The translations under genes were made by a program, and so were the position numbers. Under the pieces are notes generated by a model. The model had not been told where the DNA came from. It did not search any database and saw nothing but the letters and a program-made list of their open reading frames with translations. Below are positions 2,740-61,954 of a stretch of 64,000 bases of DNA, piece after piece. Within the stretch, counting starts at the first letter, position 1, and the number at the start of each line of letters is the position of its first letter. The DNA comes from Eledone cirrhosa (lineage: Eukaryota), in NCBI GenBank assembly GCA_964016885.1, contig OZ024766.1:13702001-13766000 (forward strand). Direction: 5' to 3'.

Positions 2740-3520
2740 GTACCATCCTGACTAGGACGTAGTCCAAAAGATGCCATTCCTTAGATGCAGGATGCATCCA
2801 TGTGGTCTTGAATTTGTTCTTTTGTTGGAACATGGTGTTGGTAACACACAGATCCAGCTCCTCACACATCTGCAGCAGGAGCATACCATTGTTGTTACAC
2901 TTTCCCACCCCATGCCTTCCGATTACATTCCATGTGTTAAAATCCCTACCCACTCTAGCATTAAAGTCACCAAGCACGATGACTTTGTCTGCCTGAGGGA
3001 TATTTCTTAAAACACCTTTCAAGGCATGGTAAAAGGACACTTTTTCTTCATCGACAGAATTCATAGTTGGAGCATACACACTCACCAGGGTCGCATATCT
3101 TCCTTTGTCCAGCGGAACTCTCATGTACATAAGACGCTCACTAATCCCTACTGGGAATTCTACTAATTTATTCACAAGTACAGTCTTAACAGCAAATCCT
3201 ACCCCAGCCTCTCTTCTGGTTCCTTCATCTCTTCCTTTCCAAAAGAATGTATATTCTCCACAAAATTCTGTAAGATGACCATCTCCAGCTAACCTCGTCT
3301 CAGATAAAGCCACGATGTCAAGATCGTAACGTCGAAGCTCCTTTGCAACAAGAGCGGTCCTTCGTTCAGGACGCTCCAAGGAATCCCTGTCAAGCAGCGT
3401 CCGTACGTTCCAGCAGCCAAGACTAAATGCCTTGTTTGGCTCTATTACAATGGCACGATGACGAGCGGGCCCCGGCTGTGATAACCTGGGGCCCCTGCCC
3501 TTATTGCCAATTATCTTTTT
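2740..3520 (-). mobile_element. AP-endonuclease (5') fragment of a different RTE-1/BovB-type LINE
   Basis: Translation GCWNVRTL...ERRTALVAKELRRYDLDIVALSETR...GVGFAV...SVYAPT...VLGDFNARVG...TTWMHP...WHLLDYVL; no RT follows. Confidence 0.9.
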
Positions 3521-12872: not shown

Positions 12873-14268
12873 AGTACCCAGTCCACACTGTAAAGTTGTC
12901 ATGTTGGTGCCATGATAGTACCCAGTCCACACTGTAAAGTAGTCATGTTGGTGCCATGATAGTACCCAGTCCACACTGTAAAGTAGTCATGTTGGTGCCA
13001 TGATAGTACCCAGTCCACACTGTAAAGTAGTCATTTTGGTGCCATGATAGTGCCCAGTCCACACTGTAAAGCAGTCATGTTGGTGCCATGATAGTACCCA
13101 GTCCACACTGTAAAGTAGTCATGTTGGTGCCATGATAGTACCCAGTCCACACTGTAAAATAGTCATGTTGGTGCCATGATAGTACCCAGTCCACACTGTA
13201 AAGTAGTCATGTTGGTGCCATGATAGTGCCCAGTCCACACTGTAAAGCAGTCATGTTGGTGCCATGATAGTGCCCAGTCCACACTGTAAAGTAGTCATGT
13301 TGGTGCCATGATAGTGCCCAGTCCACACTGTAAAGCAGTCATGTTGGTGCCATGATAGTACCCAGTCCACACTGTAAAGTAGTCATGTTGGTGCCATGAT
13401 AGTGCCCAGTCCACACTGTAAAGCAGTCATGTTGGTGCCATGATAGTACCCAGTCCACACTGTAAAGTAGTCATGTTGGTGCCATGATAGTACCCAGTCC
13501 ACACTGTAAAGTAGTCATGTTGGTGTCATGATAGTGCCCAGTCCACACTGTAAAGCAGTCATGTTGGTGCCATGATAGTACCCAGTCCACACTGTAAAGT
13601 AGTCATGTTGGTGCCATGATAGTGCCCAGTCCACACTGTAAAGCAGTCATGTTGGTGCCATGATAGTACCCAGTCCACACTGTAAAGTAGTCATGTTGGT
13701 GCCATGATAGTACCCAGTCCACACTGTAAAGTTGTCATGTTGGTGCCATGATAGTACCCAGTCCACACTGTAAAGTAGTCATGTTGGTGCCATGATAGTA
13801 CCCAGTCCACACTGTAAAGTAGTCATGTTGGTGCCATGATAGTACCCAGTCCACACTGTAAAGTAGTCATGTTGGTGCCATGATAGTATCCAGTCCACAC
13901 TGTAAAGTTGTCATGTTGGTGCCATGATAGTACCCAGTCCACACTGTAAAGTAGTCATGTTGGTGCCATGATAGTACCCAGTCCACACTGTAAAGTAGTC
14001 ATGTTGGTGCCATGAGAGTACCCAGTCCACACTGTAAAGTTGTCATGTTGGTGCCATGAGAGTACCCAGTCCACACTGTAAAGTTGTCATTTTGGTGCCA
14101 TGATAGTACCCAGTCCACACTGTAAAGTTGTCATTTTGGTGACATGATAGTACCCAGTGCCCACTGTAAAGTAGTCATGTTGGTGCCATGATAGTACCCA
14201 GTCCACACTGTAAAGTAGTCATGTTGGTGCCATGATAGTACCCAGTCCACACTGTAAAGTAGTCATTT
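12873..14268. repeat. 44-bp minisatellite, ~32 copies, derived from the RTE 3'-UTR motif
   Basis: Unit AGTACCCAGTCCACACTGTAAAGTAGTCATGTTGGTGCCATGAT; the array runs directly into a retroposon tail. Confidence 0.95.
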
Positions 14269-14450
14269 TGCTGATACTGCAGAAAGCACCCAGTACACAC
14301 TGCAAATGTAGTTGGCGTTATGAAGGGCATCCACTCATGGAAACCAAGACACGGTCATCTGATCTGAATTGTCTCACAATAGGACAACTCATCTAACCCA
14401 TGCTAGCATGGAAAAATGGACGTTAAACAGTGATGATGATGATTATGATG
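14269..14450 (+). mobile_element. RTE-type 3' tail (solo 3' UTR / SINE tail)
   Basis: GTTGGCGTTATGAAGGGCATCCA...CCCATGCTAGCATGGAAAAATGGACGTTAAAC...(GAT)n. Confidence 0.85.
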
Positions 14451-28670: not shown

Positions 28671-28843
28671 TGTTGTTATTTAGACAATACTTACAGCAGT
28701 AAGTATATGTATTAAGTCCCATCATTAAAGAGACAACATAAGGAGGCCCCATGGTGGCATCTTGACATTAATGGCTGAATAAAAACCAGAGATTATTGAG
28801 TAAAAGAAAGAAATGTTGATATTCCATATCATTGTTAACTTAC

Positions 28844-29196
28844 TGTTCCATTGTTCCTCCTGCAGCTCTGTCACCTGGAACAGGGCTGGCATGAGACCCC
28901 AACATCTCTATTATAGCTGGGTATCCTCCACGTTTGGCCAGTTGTAAAGCTGTCTCACCTTCGTCATTTACAATACTTAAGTCTGTTTCTGGCCTTGACA
29001 GCAACACCGCCACAACCTCTGTATCTCCCCTAATTACAGCCCTATGTAAAGGCGTATTATCATTACAATCCCTCACATTCGGGTCAGCTCCCCCGGCTAT
29101 CAATAGCTCTACCATGGCAACACTCCCCCTACACACCCACCTCCCCCCTGCAGCCACATGTAAAGGTGTGAACCCACTTCTATCTCCTTGATTGAT
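28844..29196 (-). CDS. Ankyrin-repeat + death-domain protein, coding exon 3 (three ankyrin repeats)
   Basis: Acceptor ttttcAG, donor GTAAGT. Reads INQGDRSGFTPLHVAA...ADPNVRDCNDNTPLHRAV...DLSIVNDEGETALQLAKRGG. Confidence 0.92.
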
Positions 29197-29980
29197 CTGA
29201 AAATGTAAAAATATATTAAATATGGTGGGAGTGAGAGTGAAGGGGAGAGTATGTAGTAAGAGAGGGGGCGAGTGGAGGTGTGGGGAGAGAATTAACAATA
29301 GACGAGAGAGAGAGAGAGGGGAAGAGAGAGTGAGAGCGGTAAATAGAGAGTGAGTAAGACAGAGTAAAAGAGTGAGAGAGAGGGAGAAATAGAGAGCGAG
29401 GGGAGAAAAGAGGGAGAGAGAGAGAGGAAGAAAAGTGAGAGAGAAAGAGAGAGTGAGAAATTCGTATCTGTACCCCCCCCCCCGTCCTTCTTAGATTTTT
29501 GTATTAAATAAATAGATTAATTCACACACACACACACACACACACACACGTAGACAGATACACATACACACAGAAATACATAGAAAGATACACATATATA
29601 CTCACACACAGACACATACATACATACATACACAGACACATTCGTAGACCGATACACACGTATATACACACAGACAGTAACACACATACACACACAGACA
29701 GTCACACACGGACACACAGACAGACACACACATACACACACACAGACAGTCACACACACACACAGACAGTCACACAGACACACACACACGGACACACAGA
29801 CACAAACAAATCCATACAGAGTGGTAGTAGCAGTAAGAGTAGACAACAGTGATAGTAGGAGGAAGGTGTGACGTCATAAGATAGACGCTACAGAAAGAAA
29901 TGGTGGAAATATGTAAATGTCTCTAATTTGAGTTAAGTTTGACTTATTTCTCTCATTTAATGACAGAAATATGACAATAA

Positions 29981-32891
29981 TCTATATATATAATTCCCGT
30001 TCTGTGTGTGTGTAAAAGAGTTTCACTTGGAAAATATTCCATCCATCTCTGTCAAATTAAACACATAGCCAAAATAGGCTACGGTCTGTAACATAAAGAA
30101 AAAATTATTTCATAATGATTAATTTCGAAGTCACAAACTTCGATTTTATAATCTTATAGGCTTTTGCACTAACAAATTCCATGACGGCCATTAAAGAGAG
30201 AGAGCGTTCCTTTTACACACTTCTTAACTGTCCCCCTTCCACAACACGACGTTATGGGATGGTATGTGTATGTGCGTGTGTATATGTGTGTGTATGTGTT
30301 TGTGTGTGTATGTGTGCGTGCATGTGTGTGTGTGTGTAATTTCCATAACGGCCAGAGAGAGAAGGATGTGTGAGAAGGAGATAGAAAGAGAGGAGTGAAA
30401 GAGAGAGAGAGAGTAAAATAAAGAAAGAGAGGAGTGTGTGTGACTTAACACTCCCCCTTCCATAACGTCACGTCTTGGGATTATGTGTGTGTGTGTATGT
30501 GTGTGTACGTGTGTGTATGTGTTTGTGTGTGTGTGTTTGTGTGTATGTGTGTGTATGTGTTTGTGTGTATGTGTGTATGTGTGTGTGTGTACGTGCGTAT
30601 GTGTGTGCGTGTGTGCATGTGTGTGTATAAATGTGTTAATTGTAAGAAATAACAGACGATACTTTTTATTCAAAAAATTAAACTCTAAAGCAGTTTTGAT
30701 GTCATAAATCATATTTTCAAAGTGAAAATCGTCATTTCTTTAATACTTATTCAGAGGTTGAAATATATTTACTGTTTGTCTTTTGGTTTTTAATCAAATA
30801 TTTACACATTGCTCAACCGACACTGCTAAACACGATATTAGCAAAATTATTTTGTAAGTATGAAAATCTAATATATAATTCCCGTGTAGAAAAAGCAGAT
30901 GATAAAATATACTTTTTCGTCTTGCTTATTATTACAAAAATTTACACATTGTACACAACTATTTATTTCTTTTAATTGATTTGTATCAGCTTTATTCAAT
31001 TACATATTTTCGGTAGAATGCCTCGAAAAAGAAAGAGTAACATTGGAAAAAAAAACAAAAAATGCTTTTGCTTTGCGTTCTTTGCGCGCAAGCGAAACAG
31101 AAGAACAATGTGTGCTACGGCGTGCTCGCAATGCTGCTTCTACCTCGATCGCCAGAGCATTACAAACAACTGAACAAGCAGAACTCCAGCGTGCTCACAA
31201 TGCTGCTTCTACTTTGAACATCAGAGCATTACAGAAAGCTGAACAAGCAGAACTCCGGCGTGCTCGCAATGCTGCTTCTAATTCCAATAGCCGTGCTTTA
31301 GAGACTGTTGACCAAAGGGCAACAAGGCTTGCGGCTGATTCTCAACGGAAAATGCGTACTTATGTCTTTCCGAGGGATTCTTCCTGTTACTGGTCTAAGA
31401 AAGGTTTTCAATACAACCCCCAAGAGGACTACGCATCCCATCCACATATCATCATTGGTAGTATGTCAACTGTTTGCGTCCATTGTAATGCAATGAGGTG
31501 GCCAGCGGAATCTACCGGTATATGTTGCTCCAAGGGAACGGTTAGATTGCCTTATTTACAAGTCGGTGCCGAACCTTTGAATTCTTTGCTGCTTGGAGAC
31601 CACCCTGATTCTAAACACTTTTTCAGAAATATAAGAGCCTACAATTCGGCTTTCCAAATGACAAGCTTTAGTCATACACCAATAAAAGATGGGAATTATA
31701 TGCCCACATTTAAAGTGCAAGGCCAAATTTACCATCAAATAGAATCACTTATTCCACAAGATGGCAAAGAACACAGTTTTCTCCAGATCTACTTTATGGG
31801 CAACGGACCTGAAGAAATTGCACGAAGGGCTTCAGTTGCTAAAGGAACGACACCTTCTCTTCTGCAGCCCCTTCAATATATGCTTCATTCCATAAACCCG
31901 TACATCACCATTTTCAAAACTGCTTTACAACGTAGAGATGCTAACAACAATCAATACAAGGTTGTCATTCGAAATGACCGCGCTCCACCAGGGCAACATC
32001 AGGGTTGCTTTAATAGACCCCAAACCGATGAAGTTGCGGTGATTATAACACGTCCTAATCAGAGCGCTTCAAACCGTGATATTGTTATTGAATGGCAGGA
32101 CTCGCATCTTCAAAAAATAAATGAACTTCATCCCGCATATGATGCTCTCCAGTATCCATTGCTGTTCCCCTTTGGCGACGATGGCTACCACATTGATTTG
32201 CAAAAGTGTAATCCTGTAAGTTTAATGCATCTTACACCAGGGAAAACCATTTCACAAATGGAATTTTATGCATTTGTGAAAAACGACGTCAACATTCTGC
32301 ATAGAACACGGATGCTCCTCAATCAATACTGTGTAGACATATTTGCTAAGATTGACACTGAACGCCTCCAATGGATAAGACATCATCAAAAGGAACTGCG
32401 TTCAGAAGAATACGGCAATCTATGTGACAAAATAAACCGAAATGATCAGGCTAATGCTTCGGATGTTGGGCTTTCTGTCATTCTCCCATCATCATACACT
32501 GGAGGCCCCGTTACATGCATGAAAAAATGCAGGATGCTCTGACCTATGTCCGCCATTGTGGCCATCCTGATCTTTTTATCATCTTTACATGCAATCCAAA
32601 ATGGTTTGACATCCAGTCTCATTTACTGTTTGTCTTTCGGTTATTAATAAAAAAAATTACACATTGTTCAACCGACACGGCTAACGATACATTTCTCTAT
32701 GTTCACATTTTAATGACACATATCTGTAAATAAAACTTGCTCTTTTTGAATACCGTCTCATTTTGTTTTATTGAAAGAGTTGATCAGGTAAAATTATCCT
32801 CCAAGTTAAACATACAACACGGAAATTGACCATTAACATTGCAGCCCTACCAAGAACTGACACCGTCCAATGGACAGGGGTCATTTGCTAG
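29981..32891 (+). mobile_element. Internally deleted Helitron in intron 2 of the host gene
   Basis: 5' A|TCTATATATATAA; 3' hairpin CCGTCCAATGGACAGG followed by TTTGCTAG|T; RepHel remnant inside. Confidence 0.88.
31018..32620 (+). pseudogene. Helitron RepHel N-terminal half (frameshifted, truncated after Rep motif 1)
   Basis: MPRKRKSNIGK / CVHCNAMRWPAESTGICCSKG / HFFRNIRAYNSAFQMTSF / YDALQYPLLFPFGDDGY / ILPSSYTGGP / PDLFIIFTCNPKW. No HUH motif or PIF1 helicase follows. Confidence 0.9.
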
Positions 32892-33344
32892 TTAAATATA
32901 AATTAACAACATGTTGCCAATGGATTCTCTACATTTTATTTTGTCTCTCTTGGAAAACTATTTCCATGTGAAAAGAAAGGTTTAATTTGTCGTCTGTTTG
33001 ACAGGGTCTTTATTGAGGGGGGTGCAAGACAGATGTGGTGGCAGTGTTAGTAGAAAATTACAGAGAGAGTGAGGGAGGTGTTTATTGATAGTGGCGAAGG
33101 TGGAGAACGAAAGGGAAGGCAGGGAGGGGGAGGGAATGAGAGAGAGACAGGGAGAGGGAGGGAACGAGAGAGAGAGAAAAAGAGAAAGAGGGATGGAAAG
33201 AAAGAGAGAGAGTTAAGAAGTTAGAGAGAATGAGGAAAGTTTATCTGTCTGTGTGGCTGTCTGTCAGTCTAGCATATAGTTGACAAGGGAGATAATCAAT
33301 TGGACAAACTTGGTGATATTTCGTTTTGAAAGAACATTTTTTGA

Positions 33345-33562
<218 letters not shown>

Positions 33563-33779
33563 GATAAATATATAAATAGAGTGAGGGTGAGAGATAGATA
33601 GCTAGGTAGACAGACAGATAGATAGATAAATTGCCAAGGGTAGATAGGTGGATATTATAGATAGATTGATAAATATACAATGATTTGGAAATATTTTCAG
33701 TATTTATCAATAGTGATGGTCATATTGAACAATAATCAATAGAATCAGACAAATCTACAGAGTGTATATGTTGACCCAC

Positions 33780-33927
33780 CTTAATAGCAGGTGTGTTGAT
33801 TAACAACTGTGCAATATCTGTACAGTTGTTAATGACGGCCTTGTGGAGTGGAGTATACCCGTATTCATCCAGACAATTTATATCCTCTCCAGAGGACAGC
33901 AAGGATTTCACCTTTTTATAGTTTCTT
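33780..33927 (-). CDS. Ankyrin-repeat + death-domain protein, coding exon 2
   Basis: Acceptor tactttcAG, donor GTGGGT, phase 2 in and phase 0 out. Reads RNYKKVKSLLSSGEDINCLDEYGYTPLHKAVINNCTDIAQLLINTPAIK. Confidence 0.9.
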
Positions 33928-33973
33928 CTGAAAGTAGTAGAAATAAATACAAATACACATATATAGGAAATGA

Positions 33974-34190
33974 AGGCACATGGCTTAGTGGTTAGTGTGT
34001 TCTACTGAAGATCATAAGGTTGTGAGTTTGAGTCCTGGGGATGGCTTGTGTCCTTGAGCAAGACACTTTATTACATGATGATCCAGTCTACTCAGCTAGC
34101 AAAACTGAGTTGTACCAGTAATACAAAGGGTCAGCCTTGTTAATCTGCTTATCCTTGAGAACTACAATAAAGGTACACATTCATGTCTGT
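33974..34190 (+). mobile_element. tRNA-derived SINE, family 2
   Basis: TGGCTTAGTGGTTAG A-box, GAGTTTGAGTCC B-box, GTCCTTGAGCAAGACACTTTA. Confidence 0.8.
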
Positions 34191-34224
34191 AAAGTGGTTG
34201 GTGATAGGAAGGGCATCCAGACCA

Positions 34225-34970
34225 GGATACTGGAATAGCCTAGCACCCTCATCTAGGAACATCAACTGATACATCAGTAAGGACCAGTGATGGTGAGGCT
34301 GAGATGCTGAAAGAGCCAAGCACCTTCACCGAGGAGCATCAAGTGACACATCAGTAAAGCATGGTGATGGTGAAACTAAGATACTGCAATAGCCAAGTAC
34401 CCTCACCTATGAGTATCAACTGATATATCAATAAAGCATGGTGATGGTGAGGCCGAGATACTGGAATAGCCAAGCACCTTTACATAAGAGCACCATGAGA
34501 TACATCAGTGAAGCCAAGTGATGGTGAGACTGAGATACTGGAATAACCAAGTTCTCTCACCAGGGAATATCAACTGGTATGACCGTAAGGCCTGGTGATG
34601 GTGAGGCTGAGATGCTGGAATAGCCAAGCACCTTTACATAAGAGCACCATGAGATACATCAGTAAAGCCAGGTGATGGTGAGACTGAGATACTGGAATAA
34701 CCAAGCTCTCTCACCAGGGAGTATCAACTGGTATGACCGTAAGGCCTGGTGATGGTGAGGCTGAGATGCTGGAATAGCCAAGCACCTTTACATAAGAGCA
34801 CCATGAGATACATCAGTAAAGCCAGGTGATGGTGAGACTGAGATACTGGAATAACCAAGCTCTCTCACCAGGGAGTATCAACTGGTAAGACCGTAAGGCC
34901 TGGTGATGGTGAGGCTGAGATGCTGGAATAGCCAAGCAGCCTCACCACCAGGAACATCACCTGATACATT
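34225..34970. repeat. 77-bp minisatellite with alternating A/B monomers (154-bp higher-order unit) in intron 1
   Basis: GATGGTGAG recurs at 34597, 34674 and 34751; monomer types alternate. Confidence 0.85.
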
Positions 34971-35081
34971 GGTAAGTGAAGCCACCAACAAGAACAAGAG
35001 CCTAATTGTCAATGGCTACCAACTCCCCCATGAAAGTATGAAATAAATCAAACAGAATAGAAATAATTGTTGTAAACTTAC

Positions 35082-35167
35082 TGTGAAACAGCTTCATGTA
35101 GTGTTATGTTACCAGTTCTGTCATCCTTTAGCTGTAAACTAGCTGCTGCTCCACTTAATTTCTCCAT
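35082..35167 (-). CDS. Ankyrin-repeat + death-domain protein, coding exon 1 (ATG at 35167)
   Basis: aacAG|CTAAAATGG; reads MEKLSGAAASLQLKDDRTGNITLHEAVS; donor GTAAGT, phase 2 matches exon 2. Confidence 0.75.
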
Positions 35168-37135: not shown

Positions 37136-37321
37136 TGTATATAACAGCAACAACAACAAAACAAGATAAAGATTACCAGGTAACTTACTTTTTCGTCTAT
37201 TTTACATTGTTTAGTCTTATATCACTTTCCACATTTTACGTATGTGTGTGTATTTATATATATATATATATATGCTGTGGTTATCCCGATCTCACTCGGG
37301 ATCTCTCACACACACACATGC

Positions 37322-38161
37322 TAACTTAAAGAATGCCACGGTACTAAAGTACGCAGATGACATCAAGCTGTACCTTGAGATAAAAAGGACAGATCCTGAA
37401 CACTATAGATCTTGCTTGCAGTCTGACCAGGACACAATGCAACAATGGATCTCAGACTGGCAACTCAAGCTAGCTGTGGACAAGTGCACCACCATACATT
37501 TTGGGAGTAAAAACCTAGCGTCCACATACTCCCTCCACAGCACTAATATCAAGAAGTCTTCTTGTGAACGTGACCTGGGCATTACGGTCAGCAGCGATTT
37601 GCGTTGGACGAAGCACGTCTGTAAAATTGTCAAGAGCGTCAAGGGTGTCTTAGCATCACTCAGCAAGACCTTTGTCAGCCGTTCTCCAGATATCTATTTA
37701 AGGCTGTACATGGCTATGGTGCGGCCACACTTAGAATTTGCATCACCAGTCTGGAACCCCTATCTTGCTCAGAACATTGACCGCCTGGAAACTGTTCAGA
37801 GATGTGCAACCAAGCGAATACCCTCCATCAGGCATCTACCTTACACTGAGCGCCTTGCTTCCCTGGGCATGGATACATTGAAGCTCCGACGCCTGGCAAC
37901 TGACTTGATACACACCCACAAAATTGTTAACCATCTTGCCAACAACAACCCTGAGTACCTTTTTGATTTCCATGTGTCTAACACACGTGGACATGCCCAC
38001 AAAGTCAGAAAACTGCACAGTTCCCAAGACTTTCGGAAACATTTTTTCACGCTCAGAGTTGCTGAAGCATGGAACAAACTACCTGCATCAGTTGTTAGCT
38101 GTCGAGACACTGCAACCTTTAAGGCCTCCATGCTTCCCGAGATCCGCAAACACTACAGCTA
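37322..38161 (+). mobile_element. CR1-clade LINE 3' fragment with open RT C-terminal frame
   Basis: LKYADDIKL...WQLKLAVDKC...ERDLGI...LYMAMVRPHLEFASPVWNP...LETVQRCATK...TRGH...FFTLRVAEAWNKLP. Confidence 0.9.
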
Positions 38162-38256
38162 ATGTTCCCCCTCCATACACATACACACATGTATATATAT
38201 GTATGTTTGTTTCATCTCTGACACACACACACATATATATATATATGTATGTTTGT

Positions 38257-38450
38257 CTCAGGTTCAATCAGAGGTAACCACAGTAAGTACGGTGCTCAAT
38301 ACATAGCAGAGTATGAATATTTAATATAGAAATGGCTTCTACAGGACTAGAACTGTTTCAGTCAGGAGAAATCATCAGGAAGCTTCCTGGTGATTTCTCC
38401 CGAATCAAACAAGTCTAGTCCTGTAGAAGCCATGTCTATATTAAATATAA
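38257..38450. mobile_element. Short hairpin element (Penelope/retrozyme-like) with hammerhead, family H1
   Basis: Homologous to 60103-60295; palindrome centred on AAGCTT at 38380-38385. Confidence 0.75.
38335..38383 (-). ncRNA. Type I hammerhead ribozyme motif
   Basis: GCUUC CUGAUGA UUUCUCCUGACU GAA ACAG UUCUAGUC CUGU A^GAAGC: intact core and helices I and III; helix II weak. Confidence 0.65.
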
Positions 38451-38460
38451 ATATATATAT

Positions 38461-38826
38461 ATCATCATCATCATTTTACGTCCACTTTTCCCTGCTTGCA
38501 AGGGTGGGATGGGTCCTATTCAGCACAGCATCTCTCCACTTGTCACGGTCCCTCGTCATCTCCTCCGTGAGATTCAGCGATCTGAGGTCTGCTCTCACCA
38601 CCTCCCCTCATGTTTTTTGTGGTCTTCCTCTACTGTGTCTTCCTTCTATTAGGATCTCTTGGCACTTCTTTACTCAGCGGTCATCTACCATGAGCATCAC
38701 ATGTCCATACTATCTCAGTCTCTTCTCCTGCACACCACAACTTATCCCTCTTATACTCAGTTTCTCTCTCAACTCATCTATGCTTGGTCGTTCACGCACA
38801 TTGACATTGCACATCCAACGGAGCAT
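38461..38826 (-). mobile_element. RTE family B 3' fragment
   Basis: Reverse complement of 6085-6441-type sequence, with a (GAT)n tail at 38461-38472. Confidence 0.88.
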
Positions 38827-38987
38827 ACATATATATATATATATATATAATATTAATTTGAGTATTTTGGGGGTAATTAGCGACACTTCAGTATGCAGGT
38901 TAGAGCACTATATGCGACCAGTGCTTTGAGAAAACAACACCATACTTCGAGATGGGGCATATCAAAATATCAGAAGTAAGCTTTACT

Positions 38988-39948
38988 TCATCTAGCTGTC
39001 TGGTGTGGTCATCTAGCTGTCTCCTGTGGTCATCTAGCTGTCTGGTGTGGTCATCTAGCTGTCTGGTGTGGTCATCTAACTGTCTCATGTGGTTATCTAG
39101 TTGTCTCATGTGGTCATCTAGCTGTCTGGTGTGGTCATCTAGCTGTCTGGTGTGGTCATCTAGCTGTCTGGTGTGGTCATCTAGCTGTCTGGTGTGGTCA
39201 TCTAGCTGTCTGATGTGGTCATCTAGCTGTCTGATGTGGTCATCTAGCTGTCTGGTGTGGTCATCTAGCTGTCTGGTGTGGTCATCTAACTGTCTGATGT
39301 GGTCATCTAGCTGTCTGGTGTGGTCATCTAGCTGTCTGGTGTGGTCATCTAGCTGTCTGGTGTGGTCATCTAGCTGTATGATGTGGTCATCTGGCTGTCT
39401 GATGTGGTCATCTAGCTGTCTGGTGTGGTCATCTAGCTGTCTGATGTGGTCATCTAGCTGTCTGGTGTGGTCATCTAGCTGTCTGGTGTGGTCATCTAAC
39501 TGTCTCATGTGGTTATCTAGTTGTCTCATGTGGTCATCTAGCTGTCTGATGTGGTCATCTAGCTGTCTGGTGTGGTCATCTAGCTGTCTGGTGTGGTCAC
39601 CTAGCTGTCTGATGTGGTCATCTAGCTGTCTGGTGTGGTCACCTAGCTGTCTGATGTGCTCACCTAGCCGTCTGATGTGGTCATCTAACTGTCTCATGTG
39701 GTCATCTAGCTGTCTGGTGTGGTCATCTAGCTGTCTGGTGTGGTCATCTAGCTGTCTGGTGTGGTCATCTAGCTGTCTGGTGTGGTCATCTAGCTGTCTG
39801 TTGTGGTCATCTGTCTGATGTGGTCATCTAGCTGTCTGGTGTGGTCATCTAGCTGTCTGATGTCGTCATCTGTCTGATGTGGTCATCTAGCTGTCAGATG
39901 TGGTCATCTAGCTGTCAGGTGTGGTCATCTAGCTGTCAGATGTGGTCA
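38988..39948. repeat. 21-bp minisatellite TCATCTAGCTGTCTGGTGTGG, ~45 copies
   Basis: Directly visible tandem array. Confidence 0.95.
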
Positions 39949-39964
39949 TTGTTGTTATATAATC

Positions 39965-42360: not shown

Positions 42361-43008
42361 ATGTGTGTATTATCTGATTATGTGTTGTATGTGGTCCTAG
42401 ATGTATGTATTATCTGATTATGTGTTGTATGTGGTCCTAGATGTATGTATTATCTGATTATGTGTTGTATGTGGTCCTAGATGTGTGTATTATCTGATTA
42501 TGTGTTGTATGTGGTCCTAGATGTGTGTATTATCTGATTATGTGTTGTATGTGGTCCTAGATGTGTGTATTATCTGATTATATGTTGTATGTGGTCCTAG
42601 ATGTGTATATTATCTGATTATGTGTTGTTTGTGGTCCTAGATGTGTGTATTATCTGATTATGTGTTGTATGTGGTCCTAGATGTGTGTATTATCTGATTA
42701 TGTGTTGTATGTGGTCCTAGATGTGTGTATTATCTGATTATGTGTTGTATGTGGTCCTACATGTGTGTATTATCTGATTATGTGTTGTATGTGGTCCTAG
42801 ATGTGTGTATTATCTGATTATGTGTTGTATGTAGTCCTAGATGTGTGTATTATCTGATTATGTGTTGTATGTGGTCCTAGATGTGTGTATTATCTGATTA
42901 TGTGTTGTATGTGGTCCTAGATGTGTGTATTATCTGATTATGTGTTGTATGTGGTCCTAGATGTGTGTATTATCTGATTATGTGTTGTAAGTGGTCCTAG
43001 ATGTGTGT
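42361..43008. repeat. 40-bp minisatellite, 16 copies, inside the hAT element
   Basis: ATGTGTGTATTATCTGATTATGTGTTGTATGTGGTCCTAG. Confidence 0.95.
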
Positions 43009-59851: not shown

Positions 59852-59896
<45 letters not shown>

Positions 59897-60067
59897 GAAT
59901 AATGATTCCCAGAATTCAACACTGTTATTAATATACTTGATGACTAATTAGACTGGTTAGACAGGATGTGAATGTATGTGTGTGTGTGTGTAGAATAATG
60001 TGTGTGTGTGTGTGATAATGTATGTGTGAAAATGTGTGTGAATGTATATATATATATATTAAGGTGT

Positions 60068-60103
<36 letters not shown>

Positions 60104-60185
60104 GTTATTCCGGGTTGAATCGGAGGTAACCACAGTAAGTAAAGTACTCAATACATAGCAGAGTATAAAAGTTTTAATATAGATG

Positions 60186-60235
60186 AGATTCTACAGGACT
60201 AGAACTGTTTCATTCATTAGAAATCATCAGGAATC
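60186..60235 (-). ncRNA. Type I hammerhead ribozyme motif (mirror copy)
   Basis: Exact reverse complement of the plus-strand motif at 60237-60286. Confidence 0.7.
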
Positions 60236-60286
60236 AGATTCCTGATGATTTCTAATGAATGAAACAGTTCTAGTCCTGTAGAATCT
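60236..60286 (+). ncRNA. Type I hammerhead ribozyme motif
   Basis: AGAUUC CUGAUGA UUUC-UAAU-GAAU GAA ACAG-UUCUAGUC-CUGU A^GAAUCU; predicted cleavage after 60280. Confidence 0.72.
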
Positions 60287-60290
60287 CATC

Positions 60291-60332
<42 letters not shown>

Positions 60333-60426
60333 GAATAATGATTCCCAGAATGCAACACAGTTATTGAAATATTTGATGAAGGGCGTGGTTAGACAGGATG
60401 TGAATGTATGTGTGTGTGTAGGATAA

Positions 60427-60458
<32 letters not shown>

Positions 60459-60514
60459 GGATAACGTATGTGTGAAAATGTGAGTGAATGTATATATATA
60501 TATATTAAGTTGTG

Positions 60515-60558
<44 letters not shown>

Positions 60559-60572
60559 CATTTATACATACC

Positions 60573-60636
<64 letters not shown>

Positions 60637-61052
60637 CTTACATACATATCTAGAAGTCAACAGAACACACCCCAGCAAAATTCTCGGAAAAGATTCCACT
60701 TTCACAGAATAAGTTTATATTTAAATATATATACATATGAATGTGTGTGTGCGTGTGTGTGTAGGATAATGTATGTGTGTGTGTGTGGGATAATGTATGT
60801 GTGAAAATGTGTGTGAATGTATATATATATATTAAGGTGTGTTTATATATATATATATATACACACACACACAGAATGATTCCCAGAATACGACACTGTT
60901 ATTGAAATATTTGAGGAAGGGAGTGGTTAGACAGGATGTGAATGTATGTGTGTGTGTAGGATAATGTATGTGTGTGTGTGTGTGGGATAATGTATGTGTG
61001 AAATTGTGTGTGAATGTATATATATATTAAGGTGTGTTTTTATATATATATA

Positions 61053-61503
61053 TGGTGGCTGCCAACTCGTTTTCGAGTACGGCCACTACTTTATATCCAT
61101 GTAGGAGAACCCCTACCGATGCGCTGAACGAGTGTGACTTTTTAGTCCAGCCAGCGACTTGAAAACTCTGGTACAAACACTACACTTGTGACAATTACTG
61201 ACACATAGTGCTGGGCCCATGGTACCATGTGACGACAAGTGCAGAGAGATCTCCAGATATAAAGCAATGCCTGTGCCGTGAAGCTTTTATAGTGAGCAAA
61301 GGCACTGCACAAAGCCAGTCCCACTCTCTTAACCAAGATGATATTTACCAAAAAGAAGAACAAGTCAACATCATTGGATACCATCAGGGTTGCAGGTGTT
61401 ATATCAGAGTTTTCCTTCTCCTAGAATTCTGCCTTGACAAAGGCTAAGGGGTCATCTCTCCCGGTGATTTTGGATGGCCATTGACTCTTAAGAGCTCCTT
61501 TGC
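61053..61503 (-). mobile_element. Short RTE-1-derived element (5'-UTR-like motif joined to C-terminal C2H2 finger and 3' end)
   Basis: CTAGGAGAAGGAAAACTCTGA motif near the 5' end; CSVCTRVFKSLAGLKSHTRSAHR* near the 3' end; (TA)n on both sides. Confidence 0.55.
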
Positions 61504-61504
61504 C

Positions 61505-61542
<38 letters not shown>

Positions 61543-61561
61543 TTTATACATACCCAGGTGG

Positions 61562-61658
<97 letters not shown>

Positions 61659-61954
61659 GTCAGGTCACTATATATATATATACTTACATACATATCTAGA
61701 ACAGTCAACAGAACACACCCCAGCAAAATTCTCGGAAAAGATTCCACTTTCCCAGAATAAGTTTATATTTAAATATATATACATATGAATGTGTGTGTGT
61801 GTGTGTAGGATAATGTATGTGTGTGTGTGTGGGATAATGTATGTGTGAAAATGTGTGTGAATGTATATATGTATATATTAAGTTGTGTTTTTATATATAT
61901 ATATATATACACACACATACATTTATACATACCCAGGTGGCTCTATATATATAT

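Follow-up and report, generated by a model that had tools for sequence, protein, structure and literature searches.

The 64,000-nt stretch of Eledone cirrhosa DNA analyzed here (the window) contains two copies of an element of about 190 nt, each with a long palindrome and a one-sided tail, and each carrying a type I hammerhead ribozyme motif. We consider it probable, at roughly three chances in four, that both palindromes are dead insertions derived from the 3' end (pseudo-LTR) of a Penelope-like element (PLE) and truncated on their 5' side, with a ribozyme that was selected in the parent and is predicted to be locked shut here by the mirror arm. The surrounding DNA is microsatellite-rich animal sequence with LINE and Helitron fragments. 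The features of the window that are referred to below are the following.

38251..38448, minus strand: element copy 1, consisting of a one-sided tail, a ribozyme arm and an inverted arm, between (TA)n tracts (the boundaries include the loose ends of reads at 38261 and 38317)
38251..38316, minus strand: 3' extension (tail) of about 65 nt, present in the left arm only, its end abutting (TA)n (supported by reads)
38335..38383, minus strand: type I hammerhead motif in the left arm of copy 1 (supported by sequence, fold and reads)
38379..38386, no strand: fold-back junction of copy 1, a 2-nt overlap of the arms that falls precisely on the 5' end of helix I
38382..38430, plus strand: inverted arm of copy 1, with a decayed core (38390, 38406) and a broken helix III (38412-38413)
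60104..60295, minus strand: element copy 2, with the same anatomy as copy 1, in the (TA)n tract of a local repeat-array unit
60187..60235, minus strand: intact hammerhead motif of copy 2, with the helix I variant GAUUC/GAAUC
60237..60285, plus strand: second intact hammerhead motif of copy 2, on the opposite strand
28840..35167, minus strand: ankyrin-repeat gene with three coding exons (35167-35082, ~33928-33780 and ~29196-28840), not part of the element

The two copies are 82% identical over 227 nt, and there is no further relative in the window. On the minus strand, helix I of the copy-1 left arm (GCUUC/GAAGC) is formed by positions 38383-38379 paired with 38339-38335. The core CUGAUGA occupies positions 38378-38372 and is accompanied by GAAA and by helix III (ACAG/CUGU), and the GUA site puts the predicted cut between 38340 and 38339. 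The arms are laid out as a 5-bp helix I, CUGAUGA, an extra U, a 3-bp stem II with a tetraloop, another extra U, GAA, helix III and GUA. Helix III has 4 bp and an 8-nt loop that contains the palindromic CUAG. Both arms of copy 2 have GAUUC/GAAUC as helix I, which in the plus-strand motif is lengthened to 6 bp by 60236/60286. The difference between GCUUC/GAAGC in copy 1 and GAUUC/GAAUC at 60.2 kb had been given in a preliminary description of this DNA, and it can be read directly from the sequence.

The core CUGANGA, together with GAAA and the NUH triplet, is complete in three of the four arms, the exception being the decayed right arm of copy 1. The three helices round the core, open at helix I, consist of standard pairs at 12 of 12 positions in copy 2 and at 11 of 12 in each arm of copy 1. 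When the 49-nt motif of the copy-1 left arm is compared with copy 2, five of the 49 sites differ, two of them in the helix I pair, two in loop II and one at a nucleotide of stem II. This agrees with the earlier statement that the core, helix III and the GUA site are invariant and that the remaining differences fall in stem-loop II. The copy-1 right arm had also been described correctly as decayed; CUGGUGA and CAAAC are present, and a pair of helix III is broken in addition. The copy-1 motif that was called intact is not entirely so, because stem II of the left arm, which has 3 bp, loses one of its U-A pairs to G38361.

A descriptor of the complete type I motif (helix I of 5 bp, core, helix III and NUH) gave three matches in the window and none in 300 shuffles of the window, so the motif is not due to chance. 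The Rfam hammerhead families gave no match at the gathering score across the whole window. The best hammerhead row, located on the antisense arm, reached 17.2 bits against the 56.3 required (E 1.4), and Rfam scans by E-value returned generic hairpin families only. Both copies carry a real type I hammerhead motif.

The main feature of the copies is absent from the preliminary description. In each, about 65 nt of unique sequence is followed by a long palindrome, which measures 71 nt at 87% complementarity in copy 1 and 72 nt at 92% in copy 2. The inverted arm of copy 1 ends at the position equivalent to 38317, and the ribozyme is placed about 130 nt from the 3' end of the element, which lies in (TA)n. 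The 5' edge of helix I is the stop point in all four arms of the two copies. The junctions are unlike, with a 2-nt overlap in copy 1 and a 1-nt centre in copy 2. Between the arms of copy 2 there are no differences at 59 sites, which indicates a young copy, whereas 7 of 67 sites differ between the arms of copy 1, which indicates an older one. The copy-1 arms agree at 43 of the 49 motif sites, and four of these differ from copy 2. Because the arms of a copy share these four letters that differ between the copies, and because the junctions differ, the inversions appear to have been made after the subfamilies split. Just to the left of copy 1 (38192-38255) there is a short direct duplication of about 19 nt, which looks like a second start of the 3' end of the element.

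The element, or part of it, is present in five of the eight listed sequencing runs, from two organisms, none of the five being recorded as RNA. The variation of the family was followed in four runs (contigs of X1 and X4, reads of X6 and X7), compared with copy 1 at 80% likeness. Matches were obtained for 11,944 of 16,517,967 contigs in X1 and 10,146 of 17,641,350 in X4, and for 9,168 of 12,467,656 reads in X6 and 9,579 of 12,785,554 in X7. We infer a family size of at least thousands of loci, and very roughly 10^4-10^5. At position 38361, T accounts for 97-99.7% of the family depth, so the G mismatch of copy 1 is private. Among the 40 of 126 rows of the variant table that are listed, the variants in the left-arm motif fall at 38361, at all four positions of loop II and at 38379. 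Each loop II position has two alternative letters, and among these 40 of 126 rows loop II is the hypervariable part of the family. The same 40 rows contain no variant in the left-arm core or helix III and no row for the helix I pair. The change at 38379 turns C-G into a U-G wobble and makes up 30% of the depth in X4.

The copy-2 type of helix I is seen at the loose ends of reads. In X6, 785 reads break off before 38337 with the copy-2 type 3' strand, and behind 38381 the copy-2 type 5' strand starts 1,373 reads in X6 and 1,356 in X7, each half of the helix being counted separately. The loose ends of X1 and X4 at this place suggest a third variant of the helix I 5' strand. In the X6 and X7 loose-end consensus, a U-rich CAG preceding helix I looks like an acceptor and recalls the intron position in D. 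virilis, but it was rejected as too weak (agreement 0.54-0.56). In the right arm, the intact letter is found in 55-91% of the family depth at 38406, and at 38390 in 68-85% of the depth in three runs and 40% in X4. With most of the family depth intact at 38406 and, in three of the four runs, at 38390, the decay of the copy-1 right arm is largely private.

All four runs contain fold-back joints close to the centre seen in the window copies, in tens of reads and in 3-10 contigs per joint, and among the contigs listed five from X1 and one from X4 span both arms. Opposite-strand joints at 38358-38360 and at 38360/38381 are likewise present in all four runs. The depth of the arms relative to the tail suggests that many copies are palindromic, and the loose ends at 38381, where many reads exit into other sequence, suggest that many are not; the palindromic share comes from short-read libraries, in which hairpins may be under-counted. 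In one X4 record the element, at 3276-3400 of 3401, is not palindromic and is preceded by 3.3 kb of sequence, which equals a full PLE in size. The record has a depth of 17.9, like other single-locus records, and the upstream part may be plain flank. The reads also contain head-to-tail units of about 70 nt that share 38317-38356, which is the GUA half and the 3' flank of the ribozyme. Their joints go back by 33-41, and one X1 contig of this kind has a depth of 3,557. The letters listed for these units do not include the core, and the units make up a satellite that descends from the element.

Copy 2 interrupts the (TA)n tract in one of the units that form a local array, and the corresponding site of the sister unit (60824-60890) is empty. 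The flanks of copy 2 match the empty unit at 127 of 134 and 118 of 127 columns. Because the sister site is empty, insertion of copy 2 into (TA)n can be concluded. In the reads, the loose ends before 38261 have a (TA)n consensus (632 reads in X6, 773 in X7), and 174 and 166 contigs show arms that end at 38317 and continue into (TA)n, like the inverted arms in the window. The array extends over 59880-61900 and is built from a number of related units, each about 450 nt long and containing (TA)n and (TG)n tracts; the (TA)n tracts host another insertion at ~61055 as well as copy 2. Copy 1 is flanked on either side by the microsatellite tail of a LINE 3' fragment, the two fragments (37215-38162, plus strand, and 38460-38830, minus strand) being oppositely oriented. 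The left fragment has a weak match to RVT_1. The listed homologues of a LINE RT fragment include one from Octopus vulgaris (62% over 52%, row 120 of 244), the higher-ranked named rows being from a cnidarian and a lancelet. Minisatellite arrays are found at 34226-34969, 38988-39949, 42361-43008 and 12873-14270, with periods of 77/154, 21, 40 and 44 nt.

In copy 1 the helix I pair is C-G, and in copy 2 it is A-U, each time in both arms. This had been termed a double compensatory change; the difference holds in both arms of each copy, but it concerns one base pair and is not double. The second copy had further been put forward as covariation evidence for the hammerhead fold. The fold itself is supported, but covariation between two copies is weak, since in the four-arm alignment, which has three distinct rows, the observed covariation score was reached by 176 of 500 shuffles. 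When 4-9 random substitutions were simulated on the 49-mer, at least one compensatory pair arose in 0.02-0.12 of the trials, and with four changes a compensatory pair with every pair and core base kept had a probability of 0.003. The tail is divergent between copy 1 and copy 2 at 12 of 82 aligned columns. The helix I covariation is a single base pair and a single evolutionary event, which is consistent with selection on the fold but not decisive. Support for the hammerhead fold comes chiefly from the complete core, the agreement with published PLE ribozyme layouts and the family-wide variation in the reads, rather than from the covariation of two copies.

The motif of copy 1 lies on the strand of the ankyrin-repeat gene, and the earlier placement about 3.2 kb upstream of the ATG is accurate, the distance from the ATG at 35167 (minus strand) to the cut site being 3.17 kb. 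The second and third exon pieces of the gene have Pfam Ank matches. The second intron contains a 520-aa ORF (30980-32542, plus strand) with a Helitron helicase-like N domain (Pfam PF14214). An acceptor-like AG is situated 5 nt before the ATG (35172-35167, minus strand), and on this sequence an unannotated upstream exon, an intron and transcription across the element are possible. A similarity search with the second exon as query found no further ankyrin exons upstream of the ATG.

The head-to-head palindrome has its centre at the 5' edge of the ribozyme, so that the antisense arm is transcribed first on either strand. The hairpin is predicted at -93 to -108 kcal/mol, compared with -3.7 to -4.7 kcal/mol when the three arms with an intact core are folded as hammerheads. 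The predicted probability of helix I is below 1e-37 in all four strand/copy cases and about 1e-39 for read-through on the gene strand, and in stepwise folding of copy 1 the hairpin is predicted to form while each part emerges. Because the antisense arm emerges first and pairs with the ribozyme, the helix I fold is predicted to be suppressed in read-through RNA. The isolated monomer adopts the hammerhead fold with a predicted probability of 0.001-0.008, and the 5' strand of stem II is able to mispair with the core GAA, also in the predicted homodimer. For the 49-mer homodimer the MFE is -18 to -22 kcal/mol, with an intramolecular helix I and an intermolecular helix III formed via CUAG, which is a double-hammerhead topology.

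According to these models, the mirror arm likely locks the ribozyme shut and the RNA of the neighbouring gene is likely not cut. The preliminary description had proposed that copy 1 could cut a 5'-extended host pre-mRNA. A working cis-ribozyme acting on a 5'-extended or intronic ankyrin transcript would fit the location of the motif on the gene strand and the AG before the ATG, which permits an upstream exon and an intron spanning the element. We nevertheless regard this as very improbable, given the predicted co-transcriptional pairing with the preceding antisense arm and the private stem II mismatch. The differences between the arms are also what neutral decay predicts, and with thousands of copies proximity to a gene is expected. 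In addition, metazoan PLE ribozymes are described in the available parts of two reports as inactive as monomers or dependent on protein (PMC4209133, PMC11167929).

A scan of 2,565 six-frame stretches revealed no GIY-YIG-like motif in the window, and by motif scan no parent RT/GIY-YIG ORF adjoins the element or is located in the window. Because no such ORF is attached, membership of the PLEs rests on anatomy. Pattern scans of viral contigs, metagenome contigs and prokaryote genomes gave no related loci. PLE insertions have been reported to carry an adjacent inverted 5'-truncated copy, junction palindromes and a tail on one end, with a bias to (TA)n (PMC8557442, PMC3846280, as far as available). 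In the accessible text of PMC11167929, a PLE protein cuts and extends both strands of AT-rich DNA. Its RT uses uncleaved RNA and has two start sites, which lie near the ribozyme, 111-118 nt inside the ORF, and mark the limits of the tail; the ribozyme is cleaved only with protein present.

On the PLE reading, the element's GIY-YIG endonuclease would nick a (TA)n tract, and the RT would copy uncleaved RNA from the 3' end, across the GUA site, and stop on reaching the 5' edge of helix I. The segment would be copied again from a start about 65 nt further in, and this second copy would be joined head-to-head via self-priming or second-strand priming, which would leave the one-sided tail. The helix I change would be the mark of two parent subfamilies, the inversion having followed their split. 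In the parent RNA, the motif would most likely be a weak dimeric or protein-assisted ribozyme that pairs by the CUAG loop of helix III.

The origin of the copies can also be explained without separate inversions if the whole 190-nt palindrome is a self-propagating non-autonomous element, a SINE-like PLE passenger that is transcribed and copied as a unit including its hairpin. The same centre in both window copies, the recurrent joints in four runs with the six listed contigs spanning both arms, and the very high copy number would all fit such an element. However, at four of four sites the subfamily-diagnostic letters are common to the arms of each copy and differ between the copies, and the junctions differ as well, both of which argue for separate inversions; the 1,373 and 1,356 reads that exit at 38381 into other sequence also count against it. 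We judge propagation as a unit to be unlikely, at perhaps the odds of one in eight being attached to the strongest of the competing accounts of origin. Slightly less likely still is the view of the repeat as a non-LTR retrozyme monomer or satellite-derived element and not a direct PLE stump. The head-to-tail units of about 70 nt in the reads point in this direction, and retrozymes have been proposed to be non-autonomous PLE derivatives (bioRxiv 10.64898/2026.07.22.740005, available in part). Against this, the window copies are solitary and head-to-head rather than tandem, and the tandem units have no CUGAUGA core in the letters listed, so they are not complete ribozymes.

An accidental hammerhead likeness in a foldback DNA transposon of the MITE type would be in line with the long palindrome and with the lack of an Rfam hammerhead match. 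It is largely refuted, and we give it the least credence of all the readings: the descriptor matches are not reproduced in any shuffle, the palindrome is internal with a one-sided tail and does not form terminal inverted repeats, and among the 40 of 126 variant rows listed the variation is concentrated in loop II.

A more specific proposal within the PLE reading is that the folded hammerhead, and not cleavage, sets the end of the cDNA. The RT would cross the uncut GUA and halt at the edge of helix I, where the strand flips, and in this way would mass-produce thousands of self-silenced 190-bp palindromes with a dimer-type ribozyme variant (3-bp stem II, CUAG kissing loop III). We put this forward tentatively, as it is rather less likely to hold than to fail. 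If it is true, PLE ribozymes would gain a structural role in transposition, and the copies would supply double-stranded RNA of 60-70 bp throughout the genome. That all four arms stop at helix I is relevant to what PLE hammerheads do, cleavage being dispensable for insertion in vitro (PMC11167929, in its available text). On present evidence, the repeat makes up an ordinary, so far undescribed family of Penelope-type stumps, with no sign of ribozyme control over the host gene. Thousands of copies in at least two organisms are material for a real covariation test.

Searches of the literature and of supplements by word found no description of this family, although line breaks may hide matches. Of the element-specific words of 9-15 nt, none occurs in the available supplement of PMC8557442 (Craig et al.) except one 10-mer, which is found in two places, one of them a Hydra-clade ribozyme; the tail has no sequence match there. 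The comparisons that follow refer to the accessible portions of the cited papers.

The insertion units of endonuclease-positive PLEs (PMC3846280, PMC8557442) share with the element a head-to-head inverted 5' copy, a palindromic junction, an extension of one arm, an AT-rich or (TA)n target and strong 5' truncation. One family in PMC8557442 File S2 has a 5' inverted copy with the ribozyme on both strands. In contrast to these units, the element has about 190 nt and no ORF, its tail is about 65 nt long compared with the published 30-40 nt, and four of its four arms end at the 5' edge of helix I.

PMC4209133 reports minimal type I hammerheads in the pLTRs of metazoan PLEs, with inactive monomers. 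Like the element, these have a short helix I, an extra nucleotide after A9 and a palindromic loop III that favours dimers, and they occur in thousands of dispersed copies, with subfamilies that show compensatory changes and with pairs of motifs on opposite strands. The element differs in having a full 4-bp helix III and a 3-bp helix II, where helix III is absent or tiny and helix II has 6-8 bp in the published examples. Its stem II is without the G10.1-C11.1 pair present in those hammerheads, and its opposite motifs are adjacent rather than 100-700 bp apart.

Non-LTR retrozymes (PMC7229834; bioRxiv 10.64898/2026.07.22.740005) are similar to the element in being non-coding, PLE-related and of high copy number and in carrying a type I hammerhead. 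They are, however, head-to-tail tandem repeats that yield circular RNA, whereas the copies of the element are solitary head-to-head palindromes.

The Hydra clade of PLEs (PMC8557442), in which one octopus family is known, has type I hammerheads with flanking U's, a short stem II with a tetraloop, ACAG/CUGU and a (TA)n target, as found here. In the table of File S2, a U after the core together with a U before GAA occurs in 14 of 26 rows, and ACAG/CUGU as helix III in 4 of 26. The distance from the ribozyme to the 3' end, about 130 nt in the element, is within the 104-183 nt of six new Hydra-clade consensi. Loop III of the element has 8 nt with CUAG, in contrast to 1-3 nt in the Hydra rows, and its stem II consists of U-A, U-A and C-G without a G-C pair at the foot. 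In its ribozyme layout, the element is closest to the Hydra clade.
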